DNA from: Anaerolineales bacterium
Lineage (GTDB): Bacteria; Chloroflexota; Anaerolineae; JAAEKA01
NCBI GenBank assembly: GCA_034432445.1
Contig: DAOUBX010000124.1
Span: 8,571-72,570 of the forward strand
Direction of reading: 5' to 3'
Length of the DNA: 64,000 nucleotides
This document shows positions 19,536 to 40,631 of this stretch, piece by piece. The translations under genes and the position numbers were made by a program. Within the stretch, counting starts at the first letter, position 1; every line of letters begins with the position of its first letter. The notes under the pieces are model-generated. The model ran no database searches, was not told the origin of the DNA, and was given only the letters and a program-made list of their open reading frames with translations.

Positions 19536-19539
19536 TCCC

Positions 19540-22512: not shown

Positions 22513-23159
22513 TCGCAATCATCGACTACGGCATCGGCAACTTGCGCAGCGTGGAAAAGGCCTTCGTGCACGTCGGCGCCGACGCGCGGCTGACGGCCGA
22601 TCCCGCCGCGATCCGCTCTGCCGCCGGCGTCGTTCTGCCGGGGGTGGGCGCGTTTGGCGCCTGCGCGTTGGGCTTGCGCCGCGCCGAGTACGACGCCCTG
22701 GTGCTGGAATTGGCGGCCGCCGGCCGGCCGCTGCTCGGCATCTGCGTGGGCATGCAGCTTCTCTTCGAGGAGAGCGAGGAGATGGGCCGGCATGCGGGTC
22801 TGGGCTTGTTGCCCGGCCGCGTGCTACGCTTTCCGGAGGGACAGGTAGACTCAGCCGGTGCGCGCCTCAAGGTGCCGCAGATCGGCTGGAACCAGCTTTG
22901 GCACGACGAGAGCGACCCCTTGCTGGCCGGTGTGCCCAGCGGCAGCTACGCTTACTTCGTCCACTCCTACTACTGCGCGCCGGCGAACCCGGCCGATGTG
23001 GTTGCCACGACGGACTACGGCTTCCCCTACGCCTCCGTAGTCCATCGAGACAACCTGTGGGGCGTGCAGTTCCACCCCGAGAAAAGCCACACCGTAGGGT
23101 TGAGGATCCTGCGCAACTTTGTGGACGCGGTAATCGCTGATCGATTTGCCGACAGCTAA
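22509..23159 (+). CDS. hisH: imidazole glycerol phosphate synthase, glutamine amidotransferase subunit
   Basis: MIAIIDYGIGNLRSV…GICVGMQLLFE…VQFHPEKS carries the Cys-His-Glu triad motifs. Confidence 0.9.
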   Translation: MIAIIDYGIGNLRSVEKAFVHVGADARLTADPAAIRSAAGVVLPGVGAFGACALGLRRAEYDALVLELAAAGRPLLGICVGMQLLFEESEEMGRHAGLGLLPGRVLRFPEGQVDSAGARLKVPQIGWNQLWHDESDPLLAGVPSGSYAYFVHSYYCAPANPADVVATTDYGFPYASVVHRDNLWGVQFHPEKSHTVGLRILRNFVDAVIADRFADS

Positions 23160-23203: not shown

Positions 23204-24064
23204 GTGGTTGGCGACTTGAGCTCACGCCCTTCATTGACCGATGTGCTGAAGGCCGGCATCCTGCGGCCGCCCAAACGACCGGCGACGCTGGCTGGCCCAA
23301 CTGCGCCAACGCCGCTCAAGCAGCGTTTGCAGGCTTTCCAAATCGAGCTGCTGACCGCGGACTACACCGACTTCACCAGCCAGCCCCGCTACAAAGCGCT
23401 GCTGCACTTTTTCTTCAGCGCGCTCTACGCGCCGCAGGACTTCAGCCTGCGCAACGCCTCCTTCCGCACGCTGCACGACTGGCTGGTGAGCCTGATCGGC
23501 CATGACCCGGTGCGCGTGCTGGCGCAGGCCATCGAGCTCAACGACCTCACCGAGTCGCTGGACGACGACATGGTGATCGCCCTGCGCACCCTGGGGGTGA
23601 GCGACGCCCTCACCGTGGACGAGTGGGAGCGCGCCTATCGCCTGGTGGATCGCCGCAGCGACCGCATCCGCCAGGTCGAGATGCTGGTGCAGATCGGCAA
23701 AGTGCTGGATCAAGTGGCGGCCGTGCCGTTTGTAGACGTGCAGCTGCGCGCCGTGCGGCCGGCCGTGGCGCTGGTTGGCTGGGAGCACGTGATCGACTTC
23801 CTGGTGGAGGGCTACCGGGCCATTCGCACGGCCCGGCCCATCGACCAAGCGTTGAACGCGATCCACGAGCGCGAGCTGGCGCGCATCGATCGGCTGCTGC
23901 CCGCTGATCAGCCGCGTGCGACTGCTAGGCTGTTTTCTCCCACTCCTGCGGCCGATGACAGCACGAACGCCTTGCGCAGCAACGACGGCGCAGACGCCGC
24001 GCGATCGGCCGGTAGCGCCTACGCCACAATATCCGACAGGGACAAGGATATCCCCACACCATGA
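23204..24064 (+). CDS. hypothetical protein (GTG start uncertain); stop overlaps the start of the next gene (ATGA)
   Basis: The ORF shows coding-like GC3 bias and is translationally coupled to the M24 peptidase gene. Confidence 0.4.
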   Translation: MVGDLSSRPSLTDVLKAGILRPPKRPATLAGPTAPTPLKQRLQAFQIELLTADYTDFTSQPRYKALLHFFFSALYAPQDFSLRNASFRTLHDWLVSLIGHDPVRVLAQAIELNDLTESLDDDMVIALRTLGVSDALTVDEWERAYRLVDRRSDRIRQVEMLVQIGKVLDQVAAVPFVDVQLRAVRPAVALVGWEHVIDFLVEGYRAIRTARPIDQALNAIHERELARIDRLLPADQPRATARLFSPTPAADDSTNALRSNDGADAARSAGSAYATISDRDKDIPTP

Positions 24065-25306: not shown

Positions 25307-26884
25307 ATGCAGCTCGCTTCAGGCCAACTCACCCAGGCAATCGAACCAGACACAACGCCCGCGGTCGCTCGACCCCGGCTGATCAGCATCTTGCTGGCCG
25401 CGGGGATCGTGTCGGCGGTCGTGGGCAGCCTGGCGACGCTGGTCTGGGGGTACGTGGCTACAGCCGCCGTAGTCACCGTGGCAGTGGACGGCCTGCCGGT
25501 GACGGTGCGCACCCACGAGGCCACGGTGGGCAGCTTGCTGGCCGAGATGGAGGTCACGCTGCAGCCGGAAGACCGGGTGTCGCCGCCGCTGGACACCCCT
25601 CTGCCCACGGGAACCGGCCGCCAGCCGCTCAACGTCAACATTCAGCGCGCCCGGCCGCTTTTGTTCGACGGCGACAGCCGCCTGCGCACCCTGCGCACGC
25701 ATGCCGCCACCCTCAGCGTGGCGCTGGCTGAGGCCGGCATCAGCCTGGGCCCGGCCGACGAGGTCGCCGTGAACGGCCAACCGGCGCGACCTGACACGCC
25801 GCTGCCCGCGCCGATCGTGCAGCAGTTTGCCAGCCGGCCCAGGGTGCGGCCCGTGTACCCGTGGCGGCAGACGACCGTTGCGCCGCTGACCGTGTCCGTG
25901 CGCCGCGCCGTGCCGTTGACACTGGACGAGGGCGGTCCGCCACTGACCGTGTGGACCACGGCCACAACGGTGGGCGAGGCGCTGGCGCGCGAGGGCATGC
26001 TCTTCTATGCCGGCGACCGCGTGCAGCCGGGCCTGGGCACACCGCTGTCGGCCGGGCTACGCGTCGAGATCCGTCGCTCGAAGCCGGTGACGATCCAGAC
26101 CAAGCAGGACGCCCTCTCCACGCGCACACTGGCCGACACGGTCGCCGATTTCCTCAGCGAACACGGGCTGGTGCTGAGCGGGCTGGACCGCGTCGAGCCG
26201 GCCCTGGCGACGCCGCTCACGGACAACCTGCGCATCCGCCTCACGCGCGTCGAGCATGCGTATGAGATCGAGGAAGACGTGACGCGCTACGCTACGGTGT
26301 GGGAGCCCGACCCCGAGAGCGAGATCGACACGGCGCGGCTGGATCAGGAGGGCGTCAACGGCATCACACGCCATCGCTATCTGGTGGTGCTGGAGGACGG
26401 CGCGCCGATCACGCGCACCCTGCAGGACACGTGGCTGGCGCAGCAGCCGATCACGCGCACCTTCAAGTACGGCACCAAGATCGTGCTGCGCGAGCTGGAG
26501 ACGCCCGACGGGCCTCTCACCTACTGGCGTAAGATCCGCATGTATGCCACATCCTATTCGCCCGCGCGCTCCGGTGTGTCGCCCGACAAGGCTTACTACG
26601 GCCGTACACGCCTGGGCCTACCCGTGCGCAAGGGCCTGGTGGCGGTCGACCCGAGCGTGGTGGCCTTGCGAACGCAGCTCTATGTGCCCGGCTACGGCCC
26701 GGCGCTGGCAGCCGACACCGGCAGCGGGGTCGATGGCCGCTGGATCGACCTGGGCTTCACCGACGACGAATACGTGCCCTGGCACCGCTGCGTCGACGTT
26801 TACCTGCTTGGGCCGCCGCCGCCGTCCTACCTGATCACCTATCGGCTGCCGAGCTATCCCAACGCCCCCTGCCTGCGCAACTAA
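25307..26884 (+). CDS. YabE-like cell-wall protein (DUF348 repeats + G5 + 3D/MltA-like domain)
   Basis: An N-terminal TM is followed by repeated ~60-aa DUF348-like units. The C-terminus YGRTRLGLPVRKGLVAVDPSVV...YVPGYGPALAADTGSGVDGRWIDLGF is a 3D domain. Confidence 0.7.
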   Translation: MQLASGQLTQAIEPDTTPAVARPRLISILLAAGIVSAVVGSLATLVWGYVATAAVVTVAVDGLPVTVRTHEATVGSLLAEMEVTLQPEDRVSPPLDTPLPTGTGRQPLNVNIQRARPLLFDGDSRLRTLRTHAATLSVALAEAGISLGPADEVAVNGQPARPDTPLPAPIVQQFASRPRVRPVYPWRQTTVAPLTVSVRRAVPLTLDEGGPPLTVWTTATTVGEALAREGMLFYAGDRVQPGLGTPLSAGLRVEIRRSKPVTIQTKQDALSTRTLADTVADFLSEHGLVLSGLDRVEPALATPLTDNLRIRLTRVEHAYEIEEDVTRYATVWEPDPESEIDTARLDQEGVNGITRHRYLVVLEDGAPITRTLQDTWLAQQPITRTFKYGTKIVLRELETPDGPLTYWRKIRMYATSYSPARSGVSPDKAYYGRTRLGLPVRKGLVAVDPSVVALRTQLYVPGYGPALAADTGSGVDGRWIDLGFTDDEYVPWHRCVDVYLLGPPPPSYLITYRLPSYPNAPCLRN

Positions 26885-26995: not shown

Positions 26996-29900
26996 ATGAC
27001 ACCATCGCCTGTTGACGCACGCCATTCCAGCCGCTGGCTGGTCACGTTGCTGCTGCTGTTCATCCTGCTGGCCGGCTTTGCCCTGCGCGTGTTCCACGTG
27101 GACTACGCCGACGGCCAGTTGCCCCATCCCGACGAACGGTCGACCGTCGCCTTCTACGCGCCGACCATCCGCTGGCCGGCCGAGGGCATCAGCCCGCTGG
27201 ACAAGCGCCAATCGCCGTTGAACCCGTTGTGGAGCGTGGAACGACAGGAGCGGCGCAGCTACACCTACGGTCACTTTCCGCTCTATCTGCTCGTCCTCAC
27301 CGCCAACGCGGCGCACGAGCTGGCGCCGGTCGCCGAACGGCTGGGCGCCTCGCCGGAGCTGGTGCAAAGGCTGCGCACGGCCAACGGGGTGCCGGGCTTC
27401 GCCGTGGTCGGCCGGGTGATCATGGCCGTGGCCGACACGGCCACCGTGCTGCTGATCTTCTTGCTGGCCGACCGCATCTACGGCCGACGGCGTGGGCGCT
27501 GGTGGCCCGGCCTGCTGGCCGCTGCCTTCTCGGCCTTCACCGTGCTGCAAATCCAGCTCAGCCACTTTTTCGCCGTCGACCCGATCAGCACGACGTTTAC
27601 GGTGTTGGCGCTGTACGGCGCGCTGCGCATGGTGGAGGCGGGGCGGGGGAGCGGAAAGGAAGGAAAAGAAGGAAAGAAGGGAAACGGAGGGAAAGAGGGA
27701 AAGGAGGGCACTGGCGGGCGCGGCGGGGCTGGCGCGGCTTGGGCGGTGGTGTGCGGGATTGGCGCGGGGTTGGCGATTGCCTCCAAGTTCAGCGCGCTGC
27801 CGATCTTGGCGGCGCCGGTGGTGGCCGGCTTTCTGATCTGGTGGCGCGCACGCCGGGCCGAGCCGGAGGTCGACGAGGAGCGCGCCGGCCTGGGCGCAGC
27901 GCTGCTGTGGCCGCTGCTGGCGCTGGGCGTGGCCGTGCTCACGTTTGTCGTCACCTCGCCCTTTGCCATCCTCGATTGGGCGAATTTCCGCCAGGCTGTG
28001 TTGGTGGAACAGGGCGCGATGGTGCAGGGCAAGGCCGACTTCCCCTTTACGCGGCAGTATCGCGGCACGCTGCCCTACCTATATTTCATCGAGCAGCAAA
28101 TCCGCTGGGGCATCGGCTGGCCGCTGGGCATCCTGGCCTTTGCGGGCCTGGCCTGGGCACTGCTCAAGCTCCTCATCGGTCGCGGCGAGGACGGCGAGAT
28201 CGTCATCCTGAGCTGGATCGTGCCCTACTTCGGCCTGACCGGCCTCTTCCTGGCCAAGTTCATGCGCTACATGGTCCCGGTGACGCCGCTGCTGATGGTT
28301 TTTGCTGCCGGCCTGGTGGCGGCGATTTGGTATGGCGAGGTGTTGGGAAGGCGGGAGCGGAGGCAAAGGAAGGAAACGCGGGAAAGTAGGGAAACGAAGG
28401 AAACCAGGGAAATGAGGGAAAGCGGGGAAAGGGAAGGAATGAAGGGGGCGGAAGAGGGAGAGCTGGCGCTGCTCACGGTGGACGACAGCGCGCCGTCGTC
28501 GGCGAGTGTGCCGGAGCCAGAAGCGCTGTCCCCGGCCGGCGAGCCGGAACCCACCTCACCCCCTGCCGACTACCAACCACCGCTCACCGCTGACCGTTCA
28601 CCGGCCACCGTTCACCGTTCACCGGCCACCGTTCACCGTTCACCGGTCACCGGTCACCGATCACCGGTCACCGTTCACCGTTCACCGGCCACCCTCCGCC
28701 GCGCCCTCGCCTTCGCCATCGCCGCCATCGCCCTGCTCGGCGCGCTCTTCTGGTCCCTGGCCTACGTCAACGGCGTCTACAACAACACGCATCCCTGGAT
28801 CAAGGCCAGCCGCTGGATCTACGCCAACGTGCCCGACGGCTCGACCATTGCCTGGGAGCAGTGGGACGACTCGCTGCCCTACGATCTGCCGGAGCCGAAC
28901 TCCAACCGCGGTCGCTATCGCTTCATCGACTGGGGCCCCTTCGAGGAGGACCGCGCCGAGAAGTTCGAGTGGCTCAAGAGCACGTTGCGCACCGCCGACT
29001 ACCTCGTGCTGTCCTCCAACCGCATCTACGGCGCCGTGGACAACCTACCGGAGCGCTATCCGCTCACCAACCGCTACTACGAGCTGCTCTTCGACGGTCA
29101 ACTGGGCTACGAGCTGGCGCTGAAGGAGGAGAACCGGCCCAATCTCTTCGGCATCGTGGTCGACGACGAGCACGCCGACGAGAGCTTCACCCTCTACGAC
29201 CATCCCACGGTACACGTCTTCCGCAAGGTGCGCGACCTGAGCGACGCCGAGTGGGACGCGCTGCTGGGCGGCAGTTGGGAGGGCGCCCAAGCGTGGTACG
29301 TGGGTGAGCCGCTGCTGATCAGCCGCATCTTCGCCTTGTTCGGCGACGAACAGGGACAGCCCGCCCCGCGCGAGCCCGGCCCCGGCGAGGGACGCAGCCT
29401 GCTGCTGGATCGGCCGCTGGACGAGCTGCCGGTGGTGCAGGATTTCCGCTGGAACGGCCTCGCCAGCCGGTCTCCCCTGCTCGCAGCCCTGGGCTGGTGG
29501 CTGGCCATCAGCGTAATCGGCCTGGCGGCGTGGCCGATCAGCTTTGCCCTGTTCACCAACCTGCGCGACCGAGGGTTTCTGCTCGCGCGCAGCCTGGGCT
29601 GGCTGATCATGGGCTGGGTGGTGTGGATGGCCGCCAGCCTGCGCATCGGCCGCAACGCCTTGCCGTTCATCGTGGCCGCGCTGCTCGGCATGGCAGCCGT
29701 GTCCATCCTCCTCTGGCGACGCAACCGCGACGAGATGGGCGCCTTCGTGCGGGTGCACAAGCGCATTTTGCTGTTCGGCGAGGCGCTGTTCGCCCTCGCC
29801 TACGCTTTCTTCGTTCTGATCCGCCTCTTCAACCCCGACATCTGGCAGCCCTGGAACGGCGGCGAGAAGTTCATGGAGTTCGCCTTCCTCAACGCCATCC

Positions 29901-32257
29901 TGCGCAGCGCCTACATGCCGCCCATCGACCCTTACTTCGCCGGCGGCACCATCAACTACTACTACTACGGCCACTACCTGGTCAACCTGCTGGTCAAGCT
30001 CACCGGCATCTGGTCGTCCGTGGCCTTCAACCTGGCCATCCCCACCGTGTTCGCGCTGACGGTAGCCAACGTGTTCAGCCTGGGCTATAACCTCGCCGGC
30101 CGGATGAAGCGGGCGCCGGGTGGCGCCGAACGGCCCCACGCCGGCCCTGGGCCAGAGGCGGCGCCGGCTGCCCCCCTCCAGGCCGGCGCCAGCTCGGCTC
30201 GGTTAGAAGAGCCGGACTTACCCCGCAGCGCAGAAATCACCGACGACCAACCACCGATCACCGATCACCGATCACCGTTCACCGATCCGGGGTCACCGTT
30301 CACCGATCCGGGGTCACCGATCACCGATCACCGTTCACCGTTCACCGACCACCGCCTGCTGCGCCCGCGCTGGCTGTGGCACGGGGTGAGCGGCGCGCTG
30401 TTGGCAGTGTTCTTCGTGGCGCTGCTGGGCAACGTGGACGGCGGCGGGCAGGTCCTGCGCAGCCTGGCGCAGCAGTCCCCCAGCAGCTTCAGCAGCAACC
30501 TGCCCGGCGTGCAGACGGCGGTGCGCGCGCTCAGCGGCTTCTGGCATGTGGCGACCACAGCGGCCACCCTGCCCGGCTACCGCTATTGGGACCCCAGCCG
30601 CGTGATCCCCTATACGATCAACGAGTTCCCCTACTGGAGCTTCCTCTTCGCCGACCTGCATCCGCACATGATCGCCATCCCGTTCACGGTGCTCTTCCTG
30701 GCCCTGGCTTACAACTTGCTGGCCGGCTATGGGCAGGGGACGGCGTTGCCGGCGAGCCGTGCTTCCCGGCGGCAGCAGGTCAGCTATTGGCTGCGCAGGC
30801 TGACGGGCAATGGGCTGTACGTAGCGATGGCTCTCAACCTGGGCGCGCTGGCCGTGATCAACACCTGGGACCTGCCCACCTATTTCGGCCTGGCCGTGTT
30901 GGCCTGGCTGGTGCGCGAGTGGCGGTCAGGGCAGTTCAGCGCCGCGCCTGGCCGCGCCCTGCTGCGCACCTTGCTCTTCGCCGGCGGCCTGGGCGTCCTG
31001 TCCATTGCCCTCTACCTGCCCTTCTTCCAGCACTACCAGCCCCTGGCCAGCAGCGGCGTCGGCATCGTCAAAACCAAGACCGAGCTGGGCCTCTGGCTGA
31101 ACATGTGGGGCTTCCTCTTCTTCGCTGCGCTCACGTTCGTTCTGGTTGAGCTGCGCCGCCGACCGCCCAGCCGGTGGCCCGAGGATCCGGCCATCGTGCG
31201 TTGGCTGCGCTTAGCACTGGATCACTTCGCCCGGCTCGGCCGAGCCTTGGCTTTGAGCAAGGCCGGCAGTGTCCGCTTAGGATCAGTGGCCACGACAGCG
31301 CTGCTTCTGCTGGCGGTCGGGCTGCTGGCAACGGCGGCGCTGTGGCTCCTGGGCTTCAAGGTGCCGGCGTTGCTGGTGTTGCCGTTGGCCGCGGCCGGTC
31401 TGCTGCTCTTGCGGCGCAGCGCCACCCCCGAAAACCTGTTCATCGCCATCCTGACCTTCACCGGTCTGCTGGTGCTGCTCGGCGTGGAGTTCGTGTACCT
31501 CAAGGACCACCTGCAGGGCGGCGACTGGCGGCGCATGAATACCCTGTTCAAGTTCTACATCCAGGTGTGGGTCATGCTGGCGCTGGCCGGCGGGGTAGCC
31601 TTGCCGCGCATCTGGGACTTCGTCCAGGGACGCTGGCGGCGCGGCTGGCGCATCGCCTGGTCCGTGGCGTTCGGCTGGCTGCTGCTGCTTTCCCTGGCCT
31701 TTCCGCTCTTTGGCACGCCGGCGCGGCTGGACGACCGCTTCCCGCCGGAAAACGGCCGGCCCCCCATCAGCACGCTGGACGGCATGGCCTACATGGAGCC
31801 GGGCACGTACACCTGGCACCCTGACCCGCAACAAGCGCCCAACACGCGCATCGAGCTGCGCCATGACTACGACGCCCTGCGCTGGCTGCTCGACAACGTG
31901 GAAGGTGCGCCGGTCGTGGCCGAGGCCGTGATCGGCTACTACCGCGAGGGCGGCCTGCGTGTGGCCAGCTTCACCGGCTTTCCCACCTTGCTCGGCTTTC
32001 ACCAGGAGGGGGAGCAGCGCTACGGCTGGCAAACCGGGCCACGCCGCGGCCGGGCCGAGGAGTTTTGGACCACCGTCGATCCGCAACGCGCCCAACAGCT
32101 CATCAACGAGCTGGACATCGACTACATCTACGTCGGCCAGCTCGAGCGCATCGTCTACTCGCCTGAAGCCCTGGCTAAGTTCGACCAGCTCGTGCAACAG
32201 GGCGTGCTGGAGATCGTCTACCGCAACGACGGCGTGGTCATCTATCGCGTGCTGTAG
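26996..32257 (+). CDS. giant polytopic membrane protein, Chlor_Arch_YYY (TIGR03662/DUF2298) two-copy class with PMT/GT-C-like N-terminal region
   Basis: There are dozens of TM helices. The first YYY motif is SYTYGHFPLYLL and the second is INYYYYGHYLVNLL, next to EKFMEFAFLNAILRS. Low-complexity insertions are present (KEGKEG..., RESRETKETRE..., HRSPVTV... repeats). Confidence 0.8.
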   Translation: MTPSPVDARHSSRWLVTLLLLFILLAGFALRVFHVDYADGQLPHPDERSTVAFYAPTIRWPAEGISPLDKRQSPLNPLWSVERQERRSYTYGHFPLYLLVLTANAAHELAPVAERLGASPELVQRLRTANGVPGFAVVGRVIMAVADTATVLLIFLLADRIYGRRRGRWWPGLLAAAFSAFTVLQIQLSHFFAVDPISTTFTVLALYGALRMVEAGRGSGKEGKEGKKGNGGKEGKEGTGGRGGAGAAWAVVCGIGAGLAIASKFSALPILAAPVVAGFLIWWRARRAEPEVDEERAGLGAALLWPLLALGVAVLTFVVTSPFAILDWANFRQAVLVEQGAMVQGKADFPFTRQYRGTLPYLYFIEQQIRWGIGWPLGILAFAGLAWALLKLLIGRGEDGEIVILSWIVPYFGLTGLFLAKFMRYMVPVTPLLMVFAAGLVAAIWYGEVLGRRERRQRKETRESRETKETREMRESGEREGMKGAEEGELALLTVDDSAPSSASVPEPEALSPAGEPEPTSPPADYQPPLTADRSPATVHRSPATVHRSPVTGHRSPVTVHRSPATLRRALAFAIAAIALLGALFWSLAYVNGVYNNTHPWIKASRWIYANVPDGSTIAWEQWDDSLPYDLPEPNSNRGRYRFIDWGPFEEDRAEKFEWLKSTLRTADYLVLSSNRIYGAVDNLPERYPLTNRYYELLFDGQLGYELALKEENRPNLFGIVVDDEHADESFTLYDHPTVHVFRKVRDLSDAEWDALLGGSWEGAQAWYVGEPLLISRIFALFGDEQGQPAPREPGPGEGRSLLLDRPLDELPVVQDFRWNGLASRSPLLAALGWWLAISVIGLAAWPISFALFTNLRDRGFLLARSLGWLIMGWVVWMAASLRIGRNALPFIVAALLGMAAVSILLWRRNRDEMGAFVRVHKRILLFGEALFALAYAFFVLIRLFNPDIWQPWNGGEKFMEFAFLNAILRSAYMPPIDPYFAGGTINYYYYGHYLVNLLVKLTGIWSSVAFNLAIPTVFALTVANVFSLGYNLAGRMKRAPGGAERPHAGPGPEAAPAAPLQAGASSARLEEPDLPRSAEITDDQPPITDHRSPFTDPGSPFTDPGSPITDHRSPFTDHRLLRPRWLWHGVSGALLAVFFVALLGNVDGGGQVLRSLAQQSPSSFSSNLPGVQTAVRALSGFWHVATTAATLPGYRYWDPSRVIPYTINEFPYWSFLFADLHPHMIAIPFTVLFLALAYNLLAGYGQGTALPASRASRRQQVSYWLRRLTGNGLYVAMALNLGALAVINTWDLPTYFGLAVLAWLVREWRSGQFSAAPGRALLRTLLFAGGLGVLSIALYLPFFQHYQPLASSGVGIVKTKTELGLWLNMWGFLFFAALTFVLVELRRRPPSRWPEDPAIVRWLRLALDHFARLGRALALSKAGSVRLGSVATTALLLLAVGLLATAALWLLGFKVPALLVLPLAAAGLLLLRRSATPENLFIAILTFTGLLVLLGVEFVYLKDHLQGGDWRRMNTLFKFYIQVWVMLALAGGVALPRIWDFVQGRWRRGWRIAWSVAFGWLLLLSLAFPLFGTPARLDDRFPPENGRPPISTLDGMAYMEPGTYTWHPDPQQAPNTRIELRHDYDALRWLLDNVEGAPVVAEAVIGYYREGGLRVASFTGFPTLLGFHQEGEQRYGWQTGPRRGRAEEFWTTVDPQRAQQLINELDIDYIYVGQLERIVYSPEALAKFDQLVQQGVLEIVYRNDGVVIYRVL
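28581..28700 (+). repeat. in-frame tandem heptamer repeats (CACCGTT/CACCGGT/CACCGAT) encoding (H/D)RSP(A/V)T(V/G) units inside the YYY gene
   Basis: caccgttcaccggccaccgttcaccgttcaccggtcaccggtcaccgatcaccggtcaccgttcaccgttcaccggccacc. Confidence 0.85.
30251..30352 (+). repeat. second in-frame heptamer-repeat block (CACCGAT/CACCGTT with a GATCCGGGGTCACCGTT variant) inside the same gene
   Basis: It encodes PPITDHRSPFTDPGSPFTDPGSPITDHRSPFTDHR. Confidence 0.85.
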
Positions 32258-32263
32258 TGTGCG

Positions 32264-32290
32264 CACCACGATCTTGGAAGATCGTGGTAC
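32264..32290 (+). terminator. 10-bp perfect stem hairpin just after the YYY-1 stop
   Basis: CCACGATCTTggaAGATCGTGG; there is no U-tract. Confidence 0.35.
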
Positions 32291-32356
32291 AAGCGCGATG
32301 CTCGCAGGCTCTACCATCAACCAATCTACCAATCTGCTCTACCAACCCACCCATCC

Positions 32357-35089
32357 ATGTTGCCACTCCTTGCCTTCTGGCTCATCACTCAGTTGTTCAC
32401 CCTAGCCGCGTGGCCGCTGGCCTGGCGGCTGTTCGCAGCCTTGCCCAGCCGCGGCTATGCCCTGGCCAAGCCGCTGGGGCTGCTCCTGGTCACCTACGTG
32501 CTGTGGCTGGCCGGTAGCCTGGGCTTCCTGCGCAACAGCGCGGGCGGCATCCTCTTCAGCTGGGTCGTTGTGGCGGCGGTCTCGCTGTGGCTAGGCCGGG
32601 CTGGTTGGCAGCGCGACGCAACCGGCCGACGGCCCTGGTTGGTCTGGCTGGCGGCCAACAAGCGGCTGATAGTCGTCACCGAGCTGCTGTTCTTCGTCGC
32701 GTTGGCCGGCTGGGCACTGGTGCGCAGCTACAGCCCGGAGATCACCACGGCCGGCGGCGAGAAGTTCATGGAGCTGACCTTTCTCAACGGCATCCTGCGC
32801 AGCGAGCAGTTCCCCCCCCTCGACCCCTGGCTCTCCGGCTTTGCCATTAGCTACTACTACTTCGGCTACGTCATGCTGGCTGCGCTCACGCGGCTCAGCG
32901 GGCTGGCTGCCGGCGTCGCCTTCAACGTCGGCCTGGCCACGTGGTTTGCCCTGACACTGACGGCCGCCTTCGGCGTCGCCTTTGACATGGCCGCTGCGCT
33001 CCTGGCCCGCGCTTCCGTTCCACCCGCCGCCGCGGCCTCCCAATCTCCCAATCTACCACCTTCCCAATCTCCCAGTCCACCCGCCACTGCGGCGTCCCCC
33101 TCCGCCTACGTTGCCGGCCTGCTCGGCGCGCTCTTCGTCGGCGTGGTGAGCAACCTGGTAGGCTTTCTCGAGTCGCTGCACAACCTGGGCGTGGGCCCGC
33201 TGGCCTTCTGGCGCTGGCTGGACATCAAAGACCTGAACTGCCTGGGCGGGGCGACCTACACCGAGCCGATCGCCAACTGCCCCAGCCCTGGCGGCCTGCT
33301 ACCCGACCGTTTCTTCTGGTGGTGGCGCGCCAGCCGCGTGATCAACGATCGCGATCTGTTAGGCCACGCCGTGGAAGTGATCGACGAGTTCCCCTTCTTC
33401 AGCTTTCTGCTCGGCGACATGCATCCGCACGTGCTGGCGCTTCCCTTCGTGCTGCTGGCCGTCGGTCTGGCGTTGGCGCTGGTGCTGCGCGGGGGAGAGG
33501 AAAAGCTGGGAAAGGAGGGAAAGGAAGGAAACGTGGGCCGAGCGGGCGTCCATCGAGAAGGCGGCGTAGCAGGACTGTCACCGGCCACCGGCCACCGGTC
33601 ACCGGTTACCGGTCACCGGTCTCCGGTCACCGGCCTCCTCAGCGCCTTCCCCCTGGGCGCGGTCGGCTTCGTGCTCTACGCTCTCTGCCTGGGCGGGCTG
33701 GCCTTCCTGAACACGTGGGACTTTCCCATCTACGTCTTCTTGGTGACCTTGGCGCTGGGCGCAGGGTTGGCCTGGCGGCAGGGCGGGCTGAGCTGGGGTG
33801 TGGCCGGACGGGCGCTGCTGGGCGGTTTTGCCCTGGGCGTGGCCGGCGTCGTGCTGTACCTGCCCTTCTACATCGGCTTCCAATCACAGGCCGGCGGCAT
33901 CCTGCCCAATTTCATCTTCCCCACCCGGCTGGCGCAGTTCTTGGTCATGTTCGGGCCGTTGTTGGCAGCCGCAATCTTCTTGTTGCTCGCCCTGAGCACT
34001 GACCGCCGCAACGTGCTGCGGAGCTGGCTGCGCTTCTTTTTGCTAACCGTGCTTGCGCCCATCGCCTTTCTGCTGATCATGCTCATCGTCGGCGTGGCCA
34101 CGCCCGGCGGCCAGGAGCTCATCAGCCGGCTGCGCGACCTGCCCGTGGTGCGCGAGCAAGTGGGCGACGCCTCGCTGGGACAGATCGTTGCGCAAGTGCT
34201 CAGGCTGCGTCTCGGCAGCCCGTGGACCTACCTGCTGCTCGCCGGCCTGCTCGCCTGGGTGCTCGCCTTGCTGGCCCTGTGGGTGCGCGCCTTGGCCAGC
34301 CCCCAACGCCAAGACACCCAATCTACCACTTCACCAAATCTACCAGTCCACCACTCCCCTCCCGTCGCCTTCGCGCTGTTGGCCCTCCTCACCGCCTTTT
34401 TGCTCACGTTCAGCGTGGAGTTCGTCTACCTGCGCGACACCTTTGGTGTGCGCATGAACACGGTGTTCAAGTTCTACTACCAGGCCTGGGTGTTGCTGGC
34501 GCTGGTGGCGGCCTTCGCCGTGGTCTATCTGGCCCACTTTGCCGGCCGCTGGCTGCGCGGCGTGGGGTTGACCGTCATCGGCCTGTTGACGGTCGCCGGG
34601 CTGTTCTACCCCGTGTTTGCCACCTACACCCGCGCTGAGCAGTTCGCGCGGCCGCCTACGCTCGACGGCACGGCCTACCTGGCGCGCGATAACCCCGACG
34701 ACGCAGCCGCCATCGCGTGGCTGCGCGCCAACGTGCCGGGCACGGCCACCGTGCTAGAAGCTCCCGGCGGTTCCTACTCGTACTTCGGCCGCATCTCCGC
34801 CCAGACCGGCCTGCCCACCTTGCTCGGTTGGGACGGACACGAGCTCCAGTGGCGCGGCAACACGGTCGAGCAAGACAAGCGACGGCCCGACATCGACCGC
34901 ATCTACCGCAACGCCCAGGGCGCCGAGCTGCAGCGGCTGCTCGAGACCTGGCAGATCGACTACGTGATGGTCGGCGAGCTGGAGCGGCAGACCTATGGCA
35001 TTTCGCCGCAGTCCGAAGCGCGTTTTGCCCGCGCCATGGACCTGGTGTACGATGGCGGTACTGTGCGCATCTACCGGCGTCGCGGCTAA
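32357..35089 (+). CDS. polytopic membrane protein, Chlor_Arch_YYY (TIGR03662/DUF2298) single-copy class
   Basis: EKFMELTFLNGILRSEQFPPLDPWLSGFAISYYYFGYVMLAAL. It carries the same kinds of simple-sequence insertions (KEGKEG, HRSPVTG x2, SQSPNLPP). Confidence 0.8.
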   Translation: MLPLLAFWLITQLFTLAAWPLAWRLFAALPSRGYALAKPLGLLLVTYVLWLAGSLGFLRNSAGGILFSWVVVAAVSLWLGRAGWQRDATGRRPWLVWLAANKRLIVVTELLFFVALAGWALVRSYSPEITTAGGEKFMELTFLNGILRSEQFPPLDPWLSGFAISYYYFGYVMLAALTRLSGLAAGVAFNVGLATWFALTLTAAFGVAFDMAAALLARASVPPAAAASQSPNLPPSQSPSPPATAASPSAYVAGLLGALFVGVVSNLVGFLESLHNLGVGPLAFWRWLDIKDLNCLGGATYTEPIANCPSPGGLLPDRFFWWWRASRVINDRDLLGHAVEVIDEFPFFSFLLGDMHPHVLALPFVLLAVGLALALVLRGGEEKLGKEGKEGNVGRAGVHREGGVAGLSPATGHRSPVTGHRSPVTGLLSAFPLGAVGFVLYALCLGGLAFLNTWDFPIYVFLVTLALGAGLAWRQGGLSWGVAGRALLGGFALGVAGVVLYLPFYIGFQSQAGGILPNFIFPTRLAQFLVMFGPLLAAAIFLLLALSTDRRNVLRSWLRFFLLTVLAPIAFLLIMLIVGVATPGGQELISRLRDLPVVREQVGDASLGQIVAQVLRLRLGSPWTYLLLAGLLAWVLALLALWVRALASPQRQDTQSTTSPNLPVHHSPPVAFALLALLTAFLLTFSVEFVYLRDTFGVRMNTVFKFYYQAWVLLALVAAFAVVYLAHFAGRWLRGVGLTVIGLLTVAGLFYPVFATYTRAEQFARPPTLDGTAYLARDNPDDAAAIAWLRANVPGTATVLEAPGGSYSYFGRISAQTGLPTLLGWDGHELQWRGNTVEQDKRRPDIDRIYRNAQGAELQRLLETWQIDYVMVGELERQTYGISPQSEARFARAMDLVYDGGTVRIYRRRG
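33577..33634 (+). repeat. in-frame heptamer repeats (CACCGGY) inside YYY-2
   Basis: caccggccaccggccaccggtcaccggttaccggtcaccggtctccggtcaccgg encodes ATGHRSPVTGHRSPVTG. Confidence 0.85.
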
Positions 35090-35101
35090 GCAGTCAGTTC
35101 C

Positions 35102-35152
35102 CCCCTACCCAGTTCCCCGGAAACTTCGAGTTTCCGGGGAACTGGGTAGGGG
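35102..35152 (+). repeat. near-perfect 23-bp-arm palindrome between YYY-2 and the next gene
   Basis: CCCTACCCAGTTCCCCGGAAACTtcgAGTTTCCGGGGAACTGGGTAGGG. Confidence 0.8.
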
Positions 35153-35170
35153 CAACGGCACGATAGCAAC

Positions 35171-36931
35171 ATGACTCCCACCACAGCAACCTTAGGTACT
35201 TACACCGCCCGGCGCTCCCTCCTGGCCTGGCTCACCATGGAGCGTATGGGCTATGGGCTGGCGCTGCTGATAGCGGCCGGCCTGCGCTTGACGGTCTTGG
35301 GCCAGCAGCCGTTCACCCCTGGCGAGGCGACGCAAGCCTGGACCGCCGTGGCGTGGACGCGTGGCCTGGAGACGCTGCCGCCCGCCGGCAGCAGCCCCCT
35401 CCTGCTCAGCCTGCACTATTTCACCTTCCTGTTGCTCGACGCCACCGAGGCCTGGGCGCGCTTTTGGCCTGCGCTGGCCGGTGCGTTGATGGTGCTGCTG
35501 CCTTGGGCTTTGCGCCGTGAGCTGGGCCGGCCGGCCGCGCTGACCGCGGCGCTTGTGCTGGCCATCTCCACCGTGCTCTCCTTTTGGAGCCGCAGCGCCA
35601 CGGGCGAGAGCTTTGCCTTTGCTGCGACCCTGGCGCTGCTTGTTTGCCTGATTGGCATGCAACGGCCCGGCGGGCAGCGCTGGGCCGGCTGGGCTGCCGC
35701 GGCATTGGCTGTGCTGCTCATGTCGGCGCCGGTGGCCTATTCTGCGCTGCTGGCGCTGATCCCCTTGACCGTGATTGCGTGGCGCGGCCGGCAGGCTTTC
35801 GCCGCAAGCGAAGCAGCGCGGCCGGCGTGGCTACAAGCCGGGCTGGTCTTGCTCGTTTTGCTCATCCTAGGCTCCACGGCGTTTCTGACGCAGCCGTCGG
35901 GCCTGGCCGCGCTGGCCGACCTGCCGGCGGTCTGGCTGAACCAGTGGACCCAGGCCAGCGGCTACAGCCTGACCAGCCTGCTGCTGCAGCTCGTGCTCGA
36001 CGAGGCGTTCCTCCTGGTGGTGGGCATTGCCGGGCTGGCCGTGGGGCTTTGGCGCCGCCACCCCTTGGCCCCTGGGCTGGGGGCCTGGCTGTTGGTTGGC
36101 CTGCTCGTGCTGTTGCGCCCCGGCCGCAGCCCTGCCGACCTCGGGGTGTTGGCCGTGCCCTTGGCCCTGCTGGGTGGCCTGGCTCTGTCCGAGTTTGCCT
36201 CCTATTTTCGGCGTACGGTCGTGCGCAGCCAGCCCTGGGAAGGATTTGTGCTCTTCCTCGTTGGCGTCGCGCTGCTGGGCTTCACCGCCATTTGGCTGGC
36301 CGACTACGCCGGCTCCAACCAGGCCGCAACAGACAGGGGCTTTCTCTGGTACGCCTTGTTAGGCATCGGCCTGCTGCTGGCCCTGCTTATCTTCTATGCC
36401 CTGTGGTTCGGCCGCGCGGTCACGCTGGCCACGGCGACGCTGCTCCTGTTGTTGGCCCTGCTCTTGCCCAGCCTGCGCGCCGCCTGGGAGATGACGCACA
36501 ACGTGGATGGGCTGCGCTGGGGGTCCCTGCTGCACACCACGGGCGCCGCCGATGGCCCCAACCTGCCCCCCTTCCTGGCCCAGCTCACGGCGCAAGACCG
36601 GCCCTACGGCGGCGACCTGCGCGATCTGGCTGTGTCCTTAGTCGCCCCACCGGGCACCCCGCCCTCGCCGCTCCTGCGCTGGTATCTGCGCGACGCCAAG
36701 GTGACCGAGGTTCCGGGCGCAAGCGAGAACAGCCGCATCATCGTCGCCCTGGCCGACGCGCCCCTGCCCCTCAGCGACGCCTACAGCGGCCGCAGCTTTC
36801 GTCTCGCTCAAAGCTGGACGCCCGTCGGCTTGAAAGGCGGCGCGCTGTGGCGTTGGCTGATCTTTGGTCACTACGGCCAACCGTTGCAACAAGAGCGCGC
36901 CGTCGTGTGGGTGCGTCAGACCGGCCAGTAG
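35171..36931 (+). CDS. polytopic membrane protein, TIGR03663-like (GT-C fold, PMT/ArnT-like N-terminal similarity), YYY-associated
   Basis: The protein has multiple TM helices with GT-C-like loop spacing. It is adjacent to the TIGR03662 genes in the arrangement typical for this family. Confidence 0.6.
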   Translation: MTPTTATLGTYTARRSLLAWLTMERMGYGLALLIAAGLRLTVLGQQPFTPGEATQAWTAVAWTRGLETLPPAGSSPLLLSLHYFTFLLLDATEAWARFWPALAGALMVLLPWALRRELGRPAALTAALVLAISTVLSFWSRSATGESFAFAATLALLVCLIGMQRPGGQRWAGWAAAALAVLLMSAPVAYSALLALIPLTVIAWRGRQAFAASEAARPAWLQAGLVLLVLLILGSTAFLTQPSGLAALADLPAVWLNQWTQASGYSLTSLLLQLVLDEAFLLVVGIAGLAVGLWRRHPLAPGLGAWLLVGLLVLLRPGRSPADLGVLAVPLALLGGLALSEFASYFRRTVVRSQPWEGFVLFLVGVALLGFTAIWLADYAGSNQAATDRGFLWYALLGIGLLLALLIFYALWFGRAVTLATATLLLLLALLLPSLRAAWEMTHNVDGLRWGSLLHTTGAADGPNLPPFLAQLTAQDRPYGGDLRDLAVSLVAPPGTPPSPLLRWYLRDAKVTEVPGASENSRIIVALADAPLPLSDAYSGRSFRLAQSWTPVGLKGGALWRWLIFGHYGQPLQQERAVVWVRQTGQ

Positions 36932-37043
36932 CGCCAACGCATCACCCGGAGAACAGGATGCCCGGTCGAGCTGTTCTGCCAGCTCTGGCGGTTCACGCTC
37001 CACCTGCTTTCCGTGCCTTCAGTTCAATCGACAATCAACAACC

Positions 37044-40000
37044 ATGAACGACACGTTACGTCAACCCGAAATCCCGCAGACCCAAGACCCGTCAGCCGAG
37101 CCGAGCTGGCTCGACCGCTCGCTGGCCACCCTTTTCACCTGGAACGTCGAAAAGATCGCCTGGCTGGTGCTGCTGGCCGTGGCGCTCGTGATCCGCCTGG
37201 TGGACATCGGGGCGCGCACGGCCAGCCATGACGAAAGCGAACACGCCTGGTTCGCCTATAACCTGTTCGCCGGCAAGGGCTATGAACACAACCCCATCTA
37301 CCATGGGCCGTTCATCTACCACGTCATGGCCCTGTTTTACCTGCTCTTCGGCGACGGCGACGTCACAGCGCGCGTGCCTACGGCGCTCTTTGGTTTCGGC
37401 ATCGTGGCGCTGATGTGGCCGGCGCGGCGCTGGCTGGGCAAATACGGCGCCTTCTTTGCCGCGCTGCTGATCACCTTCTCGCCTGCGCTGTTGCACTATT
37501 CCCGCCACACCCGCCACGACATCTACGAGATCTTCTGGGCGCTTGCATTCATCATCTGCACGTTCCGCTACCTGGAGTACGACGCGCAACGGCCAGCCAA
37601 GTGGCTGTATCTGATCGCCGCCGGCCTTTCGTTGGCGCTGGCCAGCAAAGAGGATGCGTTCATCCACGGCGCGCTGCTGGGCGGCTTTCTGGTGCTCTTC
37701 ATCGCCTATCGCTGGCTACTCTGGCGGCTCAACCCCGATCACCCGGCCGAGGAGCGCGAGGCGCCGCTGAGCGGCGCGCGCCCGCGGGACTGGGCCGTGC
37801 TGGCCGGCATCCTGGCGCTCTCGCTGGTCGGCGCGCTCTTCGTGCGCCTCACCGGCCTGACCAGCGGCACCTACAACAGCAGCGGCGCGGCCGGCGCGCT
37901 GCAGACTGTGCTCCGCCTGCTGCCGATGATTGCGCCGCCGGCCGCGGCGGTCGGCCTGGCGGTCTGGTACATCCGCAAGCGGGAGGCCACAGCGGATGCA
38001 CCTCTGACCTTCAGCTCCGCCACCGACGTCGCCGTGCTGCTGGCGACACTGATCCTGCCCTGGGCATCGCCACTGTTCATCCGCCTGCTGGGCTACGATC
38101 CGCTGGACTACAACTTCCCCGGCGGCATCCTCAGCTCACTGTCGGTGGTGCTGGCGGTCGCAGGCATGGCCGCAGCGATCGGTATCCTATGGAACCGCCG
38201 GCGCTGGCTGATCGCCGCCGGCATCTTCTATGCCATCTTCATCATTCTCTTCACGACCTTCTTCACCAACGGCAAGGGCTGGGCTACGGGGCTGGTAGGC
38301 TCGCTGGGCTACTGGCTGTCGCAACAGGGCGTGGCGCGCGGCTCGCAGCCCTGGTACTACTACGCCTTGATCACGCCCCTCTACGAGTTCCTGCCCATCC
38401 TGCTCACCATCCCGGTGCTGTGGCGCGCCTTCATGCGTCGCAACCTCACCAGCCTGGTGTTGCTTGCGCTCGTGGTGGCGTTCTCGGCCGGCGCCCTCAT
38501 CGCCAACGCAGCCATGCGCAGCGATCCGGCGTCGCTGCCAAGCGGTCTGCACAAGACGCTGGCCCATGGCGCCGTGATGCTCGCCATCCTAGCGACAGCT
38601 TGGGGCGGCTTGATCCGCTTCCCCGGCCGCCGGCAGGCCTTTCTGGCCTTCTTGCCCATGTTCGTCGTCGGCAGTTGGGGCATCTACTCCTGGGCCGGCG
38701 AGAAAATGCCCTGGCTGGTGGCCAGCATTACCCTGCCGATGTGCATCGCCGGCGGTTGGTGGCTGGGGCAGGTGGTAGAGCGCGTGGACTGGGCGGCCGT
38801 GCGCGCCAAGGGCGGCGTCTGGATCGCCGTGCTGGTGCTGCCGCTGCTGGCGGCTCTCGCCGCCCTGTTGGGCAGCCGGCCGTTCCAGGACCGCACGATT
38901 GCCGGCCTCAGCGAGACCAGCCAATGGTTTGGCGCGCTGCTTGTCGCCGCCGTTGCCCTTGCCCTGATCGTCTGGCTGGGGCAGCGGCTGGGCTGGCCCA
39001 ACACGCGGCGTATCATCGGCCTGACGCTTACCGCGCTGTTGGGAATCTGGATGCTGCGCACCACCTACATGCTCAACTTCATCAACTATGACTTCGTGAG
39101 CGAGTACCTGTTCTATGCCCACGCCTCACCCGACCCCAAGATGGTCATGCGCAACCTGGCGGATATGAGCCGACGCACCGTGGGCGACAAACAGCTCAAG
39201 ATCGCCTACGACGACGACTCCTCGTGGCCGTTCAACTGGTATCTGCGCGACTGGCCGAACGCCGTCTACTTCGGCGCCAACCCCACGCGGGAGGTCATGC
39301 AGGACGCGCCGGCCGTGCTGGTGGGCGACAAGAACCTCGACAAAGCCCGCCCTTACCTGCAACGCGACTACTACGAGTTCCGCCACCGGCTGATCTGGTG
39401 GCCAGACGAGAGCTACAAGAGCGTCACCTGGGAGAAGATCAAAGCCGGCATCACCGATCCCATCAAGCGCAAGGAGTTCCTGGACGCCGTGCTGTGGCGC
39501 GAATACCGCACGCCGATGTCGGAATGGCCGTTGGTGCATCGTTTCAGCTTGTTTGTGCGCAAGGACGTCGCCAACCAACTGTGGGACTTCGGCGCGCAGC
39601 CGGCCACTGCGCCGGCCTTTGTCGATCCCTACGAAAAAGGGCTGCGCCAGATAGCCGCCTATCAGACCATCGGCAGCGGCCCAGGCGCGGCGCCCGGCCT
39701 GCTCAACCTGCCGCGCAACGTCGCCGTTAGTGACGACGGCGCATTCCTCGTAGCCGACAGCGGCAACCATCGTATTCAGGTGTTCGCTCCTGACGGCAGC
39801 CTCGTCACCCAATGGGGCAGCTCCTGCGAACTGTACACCGCTGACCTGCCGGGCTGTGTCGATCCCGACGGGGCCGGCCCGCTGGAACTGGGCGACGGCC
39901 AGATGCGCGAGCCGTGGGGCATTGCCGTCGGGCCGCAAGGCAACATCTATGTCGCCGACACATGGAACCATCGCATCCTGGTGTTCGACCGCGCGGCCAA

Positions 40001-40631
40001 GCAGCTGGCCAAATGGGGCACGTTTGCTACGACCAACGGCGAAGCTGTCGGCGGAGAAAGCGCCTTCTGGGGCCCGCGCGGGCTGGCCATCGATGGGGCC
40101 GGCAACGTCTTCGTGGCCGACACCGGCAACAAGCGCATTCAGGTCTTCGACGCTGCGGGCGCGTTCCTGGGCCAGTTCGGCGGCGGAGGCGTGGTCGAAG
40201 GGCGCTTCGACGAGCCGGTCGGACTGGCGCTGATCCCGCGCCCCAATGGTGAGCCCGGCGGCACGCTGTTCGTGGCCGACACGTGGAACCGCCGTGTGCA
40301 GAAGTTCGAGGTCACGTTTGATGAATTCGCCGAAGGCGCGCCCAGCTTCACCTTCCTCAAAGAGTGGCCCATCGAGGGCTGGTCGAGCCAAAGCATCGTC
40401 AACAAGCCGTTCCTGGCTACAGACGGCAGCCGGTTGTACGTCACCGATCCGGAGAACTGGCGCGTGCTGGTCTTCGACCCGGACGGCAACTTCAAAGCCA
40501 CCTTTGGCAGCTATGGCAGCGACACGCAAAGCTTTGCGCTGCCGGTAGGCATTGCCGTTACGCCCAATGGCGACGTAGCGGTCGTGGACTCCGACAACCA
40601 CCGCCTGCTGGTGTTCCCGCCGGTGGACTAG
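37044..40631 (+). CDS. TIGR03663-like GT-C-fold membrane protein fused to C-terminal NHL-repeat beta-propeller
   Basis: The N-terminal membrane domain (…DESEHAWFAYNLFAGKGYEHNPIYHGPFIYH…) is PMT-like. The C-terminus has at least five NHL-type repeats (LVADSGNHRIQVF, YVADTWNHRILVF, FVADTGNKRIQVF, FVADTWNRRVQKF, VVDSDNHRLLVF). Start chosen at ATG 37044 (MNDTLRQ). Confidence 0.7.
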   Translation: MNDTLRQPEIPQTQDPSAEPSWLDRSLATLFTWNVEKIAWLVLLAVALVIRLVDIGARTASHDESEHAWFAYNLFAGKGYEHNPIYHGPFIYHVMALFYLLFGDGDVTARVPTALFGFGIVALMWPARRWLGKYGAFFAALLITFSPALLHYSRHTRHDIYEIFWALAFIICTFRYLEYDAQRPAKWLYLIAAGLSLALASKEDAFIHGALLGGFLVLFIAYRWLLWRLNPDHPAEEREAPLSGARPRDWAVLAGILALSLVGALFVRLTGLTSGTYNSSGAAGALQTVLRLLPMIAPPAAAVGLAVWYIRKREATADAPLTFSSATDVAVLLATLILPWASPLFIRLLGYDPLDYNFPGGILSSLSVVLAVAGMAAAIGILWNRRRWLIAAGIFYAIFIILFTTFFTNGKGWATGLVGSLGYWLSQQGVARGSQPWYYYALITPLYEFLPILLTIPVLWRAFMRRNLTSLVLLALVVAFSAGALIANAAMRSDPASLPSGLHKTLAHGAVMLAILATAWGGLIRFPGRRQAFLAFLPMFVVGSWGIYSWAGEKMPWLVASITLPMCIAGGWWLGQVVERVDWAAVRAKGGVWIAVLVLPLLAALAALLGSRPFQDRTIAGLSETSQWFGALLVAAVALALIVWLGQRLGWPNTRRIIGLTLTALLGIWMLRTTYMLNFINYDFVSEYLFYAHASPDPKMVMRNLADMSRRTVGDKQLKIAYDDDSSWPFNWYLRDWPNAVYFGANPTREVMQDAPAVLVGDKNLDKARPYLQRDYYEFRHRLIWWPDESYKSVTWEKIKAGITDPIKRKEFLDAVLWREYRTPMSEWPLVHRFSLFVRKDVANQLWDFGAQPATAPAFVDPYEKGLRQIAAYQTIGSGPGAAPGLLNLPRNVAVSDDGAFLVADSGNHRIQVFAPDGSLVTQWGSSCELYTADLPGCVDPDGAGPLELGDGQMREPWGIAVGPQGNIYVADTWNHRILVFDRAAKQLAKWGTFATTNGEAVGGESAFWGPRGLAIDGAGNVFVADTGNKRIQVFDAAGAFLGQFGGGGVVEGRFDEPVGLALIPRPNGEPGGTLFVADTWNRRVQKFEVTFDEFAEGAPSFTFLKEWPIEGWSSQSIVNKPFLATDGSRLYVTDPENWRVLVFDPDGNFKATFGSYGSDTQSFALPVGIAVTPNGDVAVVDSDNHRLLVFPPVD

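Follow-up and report, generated by a model that had tools for sequence, protein, structure and literature searches.

The subject of this analysis is a cluster of four large membrane-protein genes on a 64,000-nucleotide stretch of DNA from an Anaerolineales bacterium (contig DAOUBX010000124.1, positions 8,571 to 72,570; hereafter the window). We propose that the locus encodes an extracytoplasmic glycosylation machine, in which five glycosyltransferase C (GT-C) modules are distributed over four membrane proteins and would use polyprenyl-phosphate-linked sugars as donors; we put the probability of this reading at about one half. The four successive open reading frames (ORFs), labeled P1 to P4, occupy window positions 26996-40631, all on the plus strand: P1 at 26996-32257 (1753 residues), P2 at 32357-35089 (910 residues), P3 at 35171-36931 (586 residues) and P4 at 37044-40631 (1195 residues), the frame of the last being open already from a TTG at 36864. 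These coordinates agree exactly with those of the original prediction, which was made from the sequence. Independent gene calls on the identical public contig gave the same frames, with the start of P3 placed 22 codons later. The spacing between the genes is 81-112 nt, and a promoter/terminator scan found no terminator-like site between them, which is weak evidence.

In the proposed mechanism, P1 to P4 would reside in the cytoplasmic membrane and act together on its outer face. The five GT-C modules would be the PMT_2-like and the YYY modules of P1, the YYY module of P2, the divergent Agl23-like P3 and the Agl23-family P4. Each catalytic module would add a sugar to a cell-surface glycoconjugate under construction, drawing on polyprenyl-phosphate-linked donors that genes elsewhere in the genome would make and flip. 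The acidic and histidine residues of the first and later outward-facing loops (HPDE in P1, HDE in P4 and the YYY constellation) would serve as catalysts, and the soluble domains (the YYY C-terminal domain, the P1 middle domain and the NHL propeller) would hold or position the acceptor, which may be either a surface glycoprotein or a polysaccharide associated with the wall. The proposal draws on family membership, the GT-C folds of P2 and P3, conserved motifs, synteny and gene fusions; the topology, the type of donor, catalysis by the motifs, the formation of a complex and the acceptor are what we infer.

Family membership was assigned with profile hidden Markov models (HMMs). The NCBIfam cut-offs are 300.25 bits for TIGR03662 and 126.25 bits for TIGR03663, and the Pfam gathering scores are 27.8 for DUF2298 (PF10060), 22.7 for PMT (PF02366) and 26.1 for PMT_2. 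P1 and P2 scored 549.2 and 512.7 bits against TIGR03662, and 428.4 bits (E 5e-128) and 380.7 bits (E 2e-114) against DUF2298, all above the cut-offs. P4 reached 245.9 bits for TIGR03663, 38.6 for PMT and 45.5 for PMT_2, again above the respective thresholds, together with 147.3 bits for Pfam NHL (PF01436). Given the E-values, the assignments of P1, P2 and P4 are not due to chance. P3 remained below both curated cut-offs (60.9 bits for TIGR03663 and 21.3 for PMT_2), as did the N-terminal module of P1 (28.6 bits for TIGR03663 over residues 137-447, and 22.2 for PMT_2). No Pfam match to a MIR domain was found in any of the four proteins, and their likeness to PMTs is therefore confined to the core.

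The original prediction had placed P1 and P2 in TIGR03662/DUF2298, which the scores bear out by a wide margin, and had assigned both P3 and P4 to the companion family TIGR03663. This second assignment holds for P4 and fails at the cut-off for P3, although P3 is a P4 homologue by hhalign. The pairing of YYY proteins with TIGR03663 is real. The HMM scans returned the predicted families and no transporter families; since they neither fail nor point to ordinary transporters, the core of the earlier reading stands. It is highly implausible that P1 to P4 have nothing to do with glycosylation and are instead transporters, membrane scaffolds or sensors with no more in common than an architecture of many helices. 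The YYY proteins do lack sequence relatives of known function, and in kinases such as PknD the NHL propeller acts as a sensor. However, beyond the HMM result, transporters appeared in the fold searches at insignificant scores only, and invariant acidic and histidine motifs lie at GT-C catalytic positions.

Structural backing for a lipid-linked glycosyl-transfer or envelope machine, as suggested originally, comes from the models of P2 (YYY) and P3 (Agl23-like), both of which show the GT-C membrane fold. The P2 model, built from 42 homologues, has a predicted local distance difference test (pLDDT) score of 84.5 and a predicted TM-score (pTM) of 0.91. Foldseek matched it with probability 1.0 to DPY19, AglB and AftA at TM-scores of 0.25-0.39. 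Because the probability is so high and the TM-scores are low, we regard YYY as probably a distant GT-C. P2 consists of the YYY/DUF2298 membrane domain (residues 1-760; 32357-34636) and a C-terminal globular domain (residues 761-910; 34637-35089), the modeled fold of which resembles the C-terminal core domain of oligosaccharyltransferases (OSTs), with no WWDYG motif.

The membrane domain of P2 carries the motifs YYYFG (32852-32866) and D-M-H-P-H (33416-33430). The first of these, Y166-Y167-Y168-F-G, is invariant in 42 orthologues, and the YYY triplet occurs in all 50 P1-class sequences. In P2 numbering, the residues kept in 92 sequences of both YYY classes are E135, K/R136, D/E139, D156, Y166-Y168, G170, W323, R327, E344, D354-x-H356-x-H358, N452, D455, E688, R699, N701, T702, K705, E801, H828 and R833, and a Bacillota member of the family has them too. 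D343 belongs to the P2 class only, the P1 class having T or N at that position. From the helix order and the positive-inside rule, all of these conserved residues are predicted to lie on the outer side, within loops or where the membrane ends, and the repeat-bearing variable loop (residues 391-433) is predicted to be cytoplasmic. Compared with the PMT, ArnT and STT3 types of GT-C (GT39, GT83 and GT66) and with mycobacterial AftA, YYY has about four extra N-terminal helices. Its motif set is also its own in comparison with PMT, ArnT and STT3 enzymes, and comprises EK..E, D156, YYY, D-x-H-x-H, NTWD and R.NT..K. The MIR domain of PMTs is missing from P1 to P4, and the WWDYG of STT3, AglB and PglB from P2.

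The fold of the C-terminal domain raises the question of whether YYY is a diverged STT3/AglB/PglB-like branch that glycosylates secreted or surface proteins, with the C-terminal domain binding a peptide acceptor. The best Foldseek matches, DPY19 and AglB, are peptide-modifying GT-Cs, and the middle domain of P1 has an E-x-W-D-D motif and a weak likeness to the start of the YYY C-terminal domain. On the other hand, P2 contains no WWD and hence no WWDYG, and has no STT3 match in Pfam or among PDB sequences. The human STT3A segment 503-559 around WWDYG, checked against PDB sequences, can be aligned to the YYY C-terminal profile in the register WLRxNxP. This candidate link between the YYY C-terminal domain and the 'WLRxNxP...WWDYG' of STT3 was rejected, as its score of 3.3 bits lies below that of shuffled controls, which reach 9.2. 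The resemblance to OSTs therefore appears to exist at the level of the modeled fold only. In addition, the Bacillota DUF2298 gene lies amid polysaccharide rather than protein-glycosylation genes, and no candidate glycoprotein is conserved beside the cluster. We consider an OST-like role improbable.

P1 is composed of three parts. The N-terminal PMT_2-like GT-C membrane module (residues 1-588; 26996-28759) bears the motif H44-P45-D46-E47 in its first loop (27125-27136), and this HPDE is invariant in 51 of 51 orthologues. PMT_2 matched 24 of 25 orthologues (best E 1e-16) and PMT matched 18 of 25, in agreement with the PMT-like N-terminal region that had been predicted. A profile of 51 N-terminal sequences aligned with the P4 family at an hhalign probability of 93% over 118 columns, covering the PMT_2 core only. 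The module also contains low-complexity inserts rich in KE and G. It is followed by a middle soluble domain (residues 589-827; 28760-29476), recognized from conserved columns in alignments of 25 and 51 sequences and probably extracytoplasmic, with the conserved motif E621-x-W623-D624-D625. By profile comparison, this domain weakly resembles the beginning of the YYY C-terminal domain (hhalign: 30 columns at a probability of 55%), and it gave no hhalign signal against the soluble domains of P3 and P4. The remainder of P1 (residues 828-1753; 29477-32257) is a YYY/DUF2298 module, with the DUF2298 match at residues 871-1528, a YYYYG motif at residue 988 (29957-29971), a D-L-H-P-H motif (30653-30667) and the conserved YYY residues of the family.

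Residues 828-1751 of P1 align colinearly with the whole of P2. Two YYY copies had been predicted in P1; there is one, and the N-terminal 827 residues are unrelated to it. A second copy was sought and rejected, as Pfam reports a single DUF2298 stretch and the N-terminal 827 residues reach an hhalign probability of 4% against YYY. A match between residues 509-592 of P1 and 382-452 of P2, considered as a YYY duplication, proved to be a heptanucleotide-repeat insert common to both. Comparison of the P1 N-terminal module and of P3 with the PDB by sequence gave nothing useful. P2 and the C-terminal 926 residues of P1 share with the Chlor_Arch_YYY family the YYYxG motif, a size of about 900 residues, strong hydrophobicity and co-occurring TIGR03663-type genes. 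Nothing essential differs, except that P1 joins a PMT_2-like module to one YYY module and is not of the architecture of relatives of 2400-2750 residues, which have two copies and TPR repeats.

P4 begins with an Agl23/TIGR03663 GT-C membrane domain (residues 1-675; 37044-39068), recognized by TIGR03663, PMT and PMT_2, with H62-D63-E64 in the first loop (37227-37235). Among 32 orthologues, H62 and D63 are invariant and E64 is conserved in at least 90%. A middle alpha/beta domain (residues 676-870; 39069-39653) is, by hhalign, the counterpart of the P3 C-terminal domain. The protein ends in a six-bladed NHL beta-propeller (residues 871-1195; 39654-40631), which confirms the NHL fusion predicted for the last gene. 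Besides the Pfam match, six '(A/V/T)D..N.R...F' blade cores are found at residues 904-1191, and the best matches among PDB sequences are the NHL domains of Thin (E 2e-53) and TRIM71 (E 7e-37). The propeller is probably extracytoplasmic. P3 (35171-36931) has a membrane domain (residues 1-443) and a C-terminal alpha/beta domain (residues 444-586), and hhalign shows its homology to the first two thirds of P4 (probability 99.9%, E 8e-36). The full-length alignment of the P3 and P4 families covers the alpha/beta region, for which a domain-only comparison gave a probability of 48%. P3 is thus a clear, though divergent, paralogue of P4. The first-loop motif reads S-H-D-E-S in P4 and T-P-G-E-A in P3; the latter has lost the Asp, and E52 is its one invariant residue. 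The first-loop acidic residues of the cluster are accordingly those of HPDE in P1, D63 and E64 beside H62 in P4, E135, D/E139 and D156 in YYY, and E52 alone in P3. The P1 and P4 motifs sit where GT-C enzymes keep a catalytic acid, on loops that would face outward according to the helix order and the positive-inside rule.

TIGR03663 carries the NCBIfam name 'flippase activity-associated protein Agl23'. In published work (PMC11182771), purified Haloarcula hispanica Agl23 translocated Man5GlcNAc2-PP-lipid (M5GN2-PP-lipid) in liposomes, and a yeast rft1-delta strain was rescued. Translocation of lipid-linked sugars, or a part in using dolichol-P-hexose, is reported for this Agl23 alone. The description of the family pair as functionally uncharacterised is outdated for TIGR03663. 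It is conceivable that P3 and P4 translocate polyprenyl-phosphate-linked sugars, and that the YYY modules and the N-terminal module of P1 are the transferases that use them. In addition to the name and the liposome and yeast data, such a division of labor would account for TIGR03662 and TIGR03663 traveling together. Agl23-like and YYY genes adjoin in most loci, and P3 has no catalytic-type Asp, as a non-transferase might. However, P4 has its invariant HD(E) at the catalytic-loop position, where the annotated Agl23 of Halogeometricum borinquense likewise has Y-D-E. The soluble part of P4, about 520 residues including the NHL propeller, fits acceptor binding better than lipid flipping, and roughly half of the loci lack P4 but retain P1, P2 and P3.

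A further point concerns an archaeal agl23 that is coupled to a gene of the GtrA family, the usual flippase candidate. On plasmid pHBOR02 of H. borinquense (locus L088, 8902-11273), agl23 overlaps a GtrA/DPMS-transmembrane-domain gene by 4 nt. In three-component glycosylation systems, GtrA is the proposed flippase and a GT-C transferase is the third part (PMC11127046), and the overlapping genes may represent the pair expected for the flippase and the GT-C of such a system. Because of the H-D(-E) at the catalytic-loop position, the archaeal YDE and the agl23-GtrA overlap, a transferase role for P4 is more likely than a flippase role. We retain the latter as the main rival, and the scheme in which P3 and P4 supply flipped donors to the other modules is rather unlikely. 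P4 passes the TIGR03663 cut-off and shares the first-loop D-E pair with an annotated archaeal Agl23, but is about twice as long and has an extra alpha/beta domain and the six-bladed propeller, and P3 and the P1 N-terminal module fall below that cut-off. Since P4 is bacterial, the lipid carrier would be a bacterial polyprenol, not dolichol.

The arrangement of the genes is widely conserved. A word-indexed search found more than 6,500 close relatives of P2, the nearest named ones being from Caldilineales metagenome-assembled genomes, so that a Caldilineales-like member of the class Anaerolineae is the most likely source of the window. A YYY profile search of 1.84 billion representatives returned 9,258 clusters (50% identity) at E<=0.001, and 4,578 at E<=1e-30. 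For synteny, the parts of P1 to P4 were mapped by tblastn on 84 loci of Caldilineales, Anaerolineales, Thermoflexales and Ardenticatenales. Of the 58 loci with sufficient flank, 52 have a P1-type gene directly upstream of P2; a P3-type gene follows directly downstream in 57 of 69, and a P4-type gene with NHL is no more than 8 kb away in 27 of 53. The PMT_2-like and YYY parts of P1 are found in a single ORF in 50 of 52 loci. The order P1-P2-P3(-P4) is recurrent across these four orders, and loci of the class Anaerolineae normally have this four-gene arrangement with the NHL fusion. The original prediction had named the four paralogues and the NHL fusion as what makes this locus a good entry point; they are not special to it, and at least 100 of the 120 protein clusters listed share the P4-like PMT_2 and NHL architecture at similar length.

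DUF2298 occurs twice in some relatives of 2400-2750 residues; of three scanned, one also matched PMT_2 and two had C-terminal TPR repeats. Their sequences suggest that they are P1 and P2 joined in one chain, and such a fusion elsewhere argues for joint action of P1 and P2. The genes flanking the cluster are not conserved, with two exceptions. The first is a DUF348-G5-3D gene, resembling a wall hydrolase, which lies just upstream of P1 in Caldilineales-type loci and in the window (25307-26884). The second is an insertion of an extracytoplasmic function (ECF) sigma factor: in loci L002 (8634-9999), L004 (8508-9944) and L086 (6559-9966), an ECF sigma-70 gene and a gene for a protein of 188-286 residues stand between the P1-type and P2-type genes. 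The latter protein has no confident Pfam match and is possibly an anti-sigma factor. Judging by this insertion, some lineages may regulate the cluster in response to envelope stress. The pair is absent from the window; the window ORF at 23204-24064 was compared with the 286-residue protein encoded after the ECF sigma factor in other loci, and the two proved unrelated. A published neighborhood table for another Chloroflexi genome also shows DUF2298 beside PMT2/PA14 and PMT2 genes (PMC8756737).

The family pair had been described as limited to Chloroflexota and Archaea. Searching plasmids with P2 by tblastn brought up a DUF2298 gene on plasmid pNP95 of Pseudobutyrivibrio xylanivorans (Bacillota), and the YYY family is therefore wider than these two groups. 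On pNP95 (locus L090, 1-13125), the 751-residue DUF2298 protein has the YYY residues conserved in Chloroflexota and is encoded in a surface-polysaccharide cluster of this rumen Bacillota. Its neighbors include glycosyltransferase family 2 (GT2) enzymes, a DegT aminotransferase, an O-antigen-ligase-family gene and an NDP-sugar epimerase/dehydratase.

The proposed mechanism is weakest with regard to the acceptor. AftA as a top fold match, the Bacillota gene context and the wall-hydrolase neighbor point to a polysaccharide. The OST-like domain, the matches to DPY19 and AglB and the archaeal Agl23 phenotype point to a protein. The proposed logic is that of three-component systems such as GtrA/GtrB/Gtr* and the GtcA systems of Listeria and Bacillus, in which a lipid-phosphate sugar is used by a GT-C on the outside (PMC11127046, PMC7389260). 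In contrast to those systems, the cluster has no GT2 synthase or GtrA-like flippase in or beside it, and contains five GT-C modules, not one.

Several observations weigh against the proposed glycosylation machine. The likeness of the YYY model to known GT-C structures appears only distant, as the TM-scores indicate, YYY has no sequence relatives in the PDB, and the comparison of the YYY and Agl23-like profiles gave no link (hhalign probability 0.9%). The literature searched contained no paper on the function of DUF2298/TIGR03662 and no biochemistry of YYY proteins. P3 may be inactive, as its sequence is without the Asp of the DE motif. For Agl23, the activity published (PMC11182771) is translocation of a lipid-linked sugar and not transfer. 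Neither a GT2 polyprenyl-phosphate sugar synthase nor a GtrA-like gene was detected among the scanned window ORFs, and none is conserved beside the cluster in the loci examined. As to whether the genes form an operon, the promoter/terminator scan found no promoter-like site, and terminator-like matches inside genes only.

A bolder version of the glycosylation proposal is speculative, and we think it quite unlikely to hold in full. YYY would be an unrecognised, very large GT-C family of about 9,000 clusters at 50% identity, the C-terminal domain of which shares an ancestor with the OST core, and it would form a fixed complex with PMT_2-like and Agl23-like GT-Cs in Anaerolineae that would glycosylate surface proteins or the sheath in a novel way. 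If this were true, the 'flippase-associated' Agl23 proteins would be GT-C transferases of three-component systems.

P1 and P2 also contain two kinds of repeats. Heptanucleotide tandem arrays (unit CACCGNT in the genome of the window) lie in frame at 28578-28693, 30236-30354 and 33577-33633, and further arrays are intergenic (13446-13476 and 57484-57538). Arrays of the same type occur in the related loci L004 (15902-15990), L011 (11074-11170), L043 (4343-4502) and L071 (10248-11246). They encode 7-residue repeats (e.g., HRSPxTx) in poorly conserved, low-confidence loops of big membrane proteins. Arrays with a period of 7, 14 or 21 were found in 42 of 85 related sequences, with a unit that differs genome by genome, often in the same variable loop of the YYY gene that is predicted to be cytoplasmic. 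They are similar to the short tandemly repeated repetitive (STRR) sequences of cyanobacteria. Purine-rich 9-nt repeats resembling GGAAAGGAG are found at 27653-27708, 28351-28431 and 33497-33531, beside the heptamer arrays, and encode low-complexity stretches rich in KE or RE (GKEGKEGKK, RETKETRE).

The rest of the window contains genes of other kinds; Rfam and tRNA scans were empty. Convergent with the cluster, on the minus strand at 42409-47541, is the gene for a 1710-residue protein with subtilase S8, PPC and von Willebrand A domains, an adjacency that is unconserved in other genomes. An 815-residue protein (11011-13458) has PLD-like nuclease/phospholipase domains and three OB-fold (tRNA_anti-codon) domains; its gene has at the 3' end a tandem duplication of 318 nt (12863-13447; 1.8 copies with 78% identity), with a heptamer array after it. 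Histidine biosynthesis genes at 15655-23159 encode histidinol dehydrogenase, a class I/II aminotransferase, imidazoleglycerol-phosphate (IGP) dehydratase and a glutamine amidotransferase; around 17200-19535 they are separated by small ORFs, in which RHH antitoxin-like, HNH endonuclease and C39 peptidase domains were recognized. Two large ORFs without a Pfam match (641 and 773 residues; 1236-3161 and 7770-10091), an AbiEii toxin-like gene (14665-15378) and a 766-residue Schlafen/AlbA_2 protein (53028-55328, minus strand) were also found; the last two may be defence-related.

The cluster is standard for its class and built from catalogued families of a poorly characterised kind. What is new here is the predicted structural assignment of YYY to the GT-C fold with an OST-like C-terminal domain, the module map, and the evidence from the conserved cluster and the fusions. 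Since the locus is ordinary for its lineage, its value is that of a representative entry point rather than of an oddity. DUF2298/YYY, with the thousands of clusters found at E<=0.001, is among the larger membrane-protein families without an assigned function. The question also bears on archaeal and eukaryotic glycobiology, in that Agl23 may be a true lipid-linked-sugar flippase or a GT-C transferase that scrambles lipids in vitro. Filamentous Chloroflexota are abundant in sludge, sediments and hot springs. A YYY GT-C fold with a predicted outward acidic and histidine site, an OST-like C-terminal domain and a conserved association, in one cluster or a single polypeptide, with PMT_2-like and Agl23-like proteins together provide a testable hypothesis for the envelope biology of these organisms.

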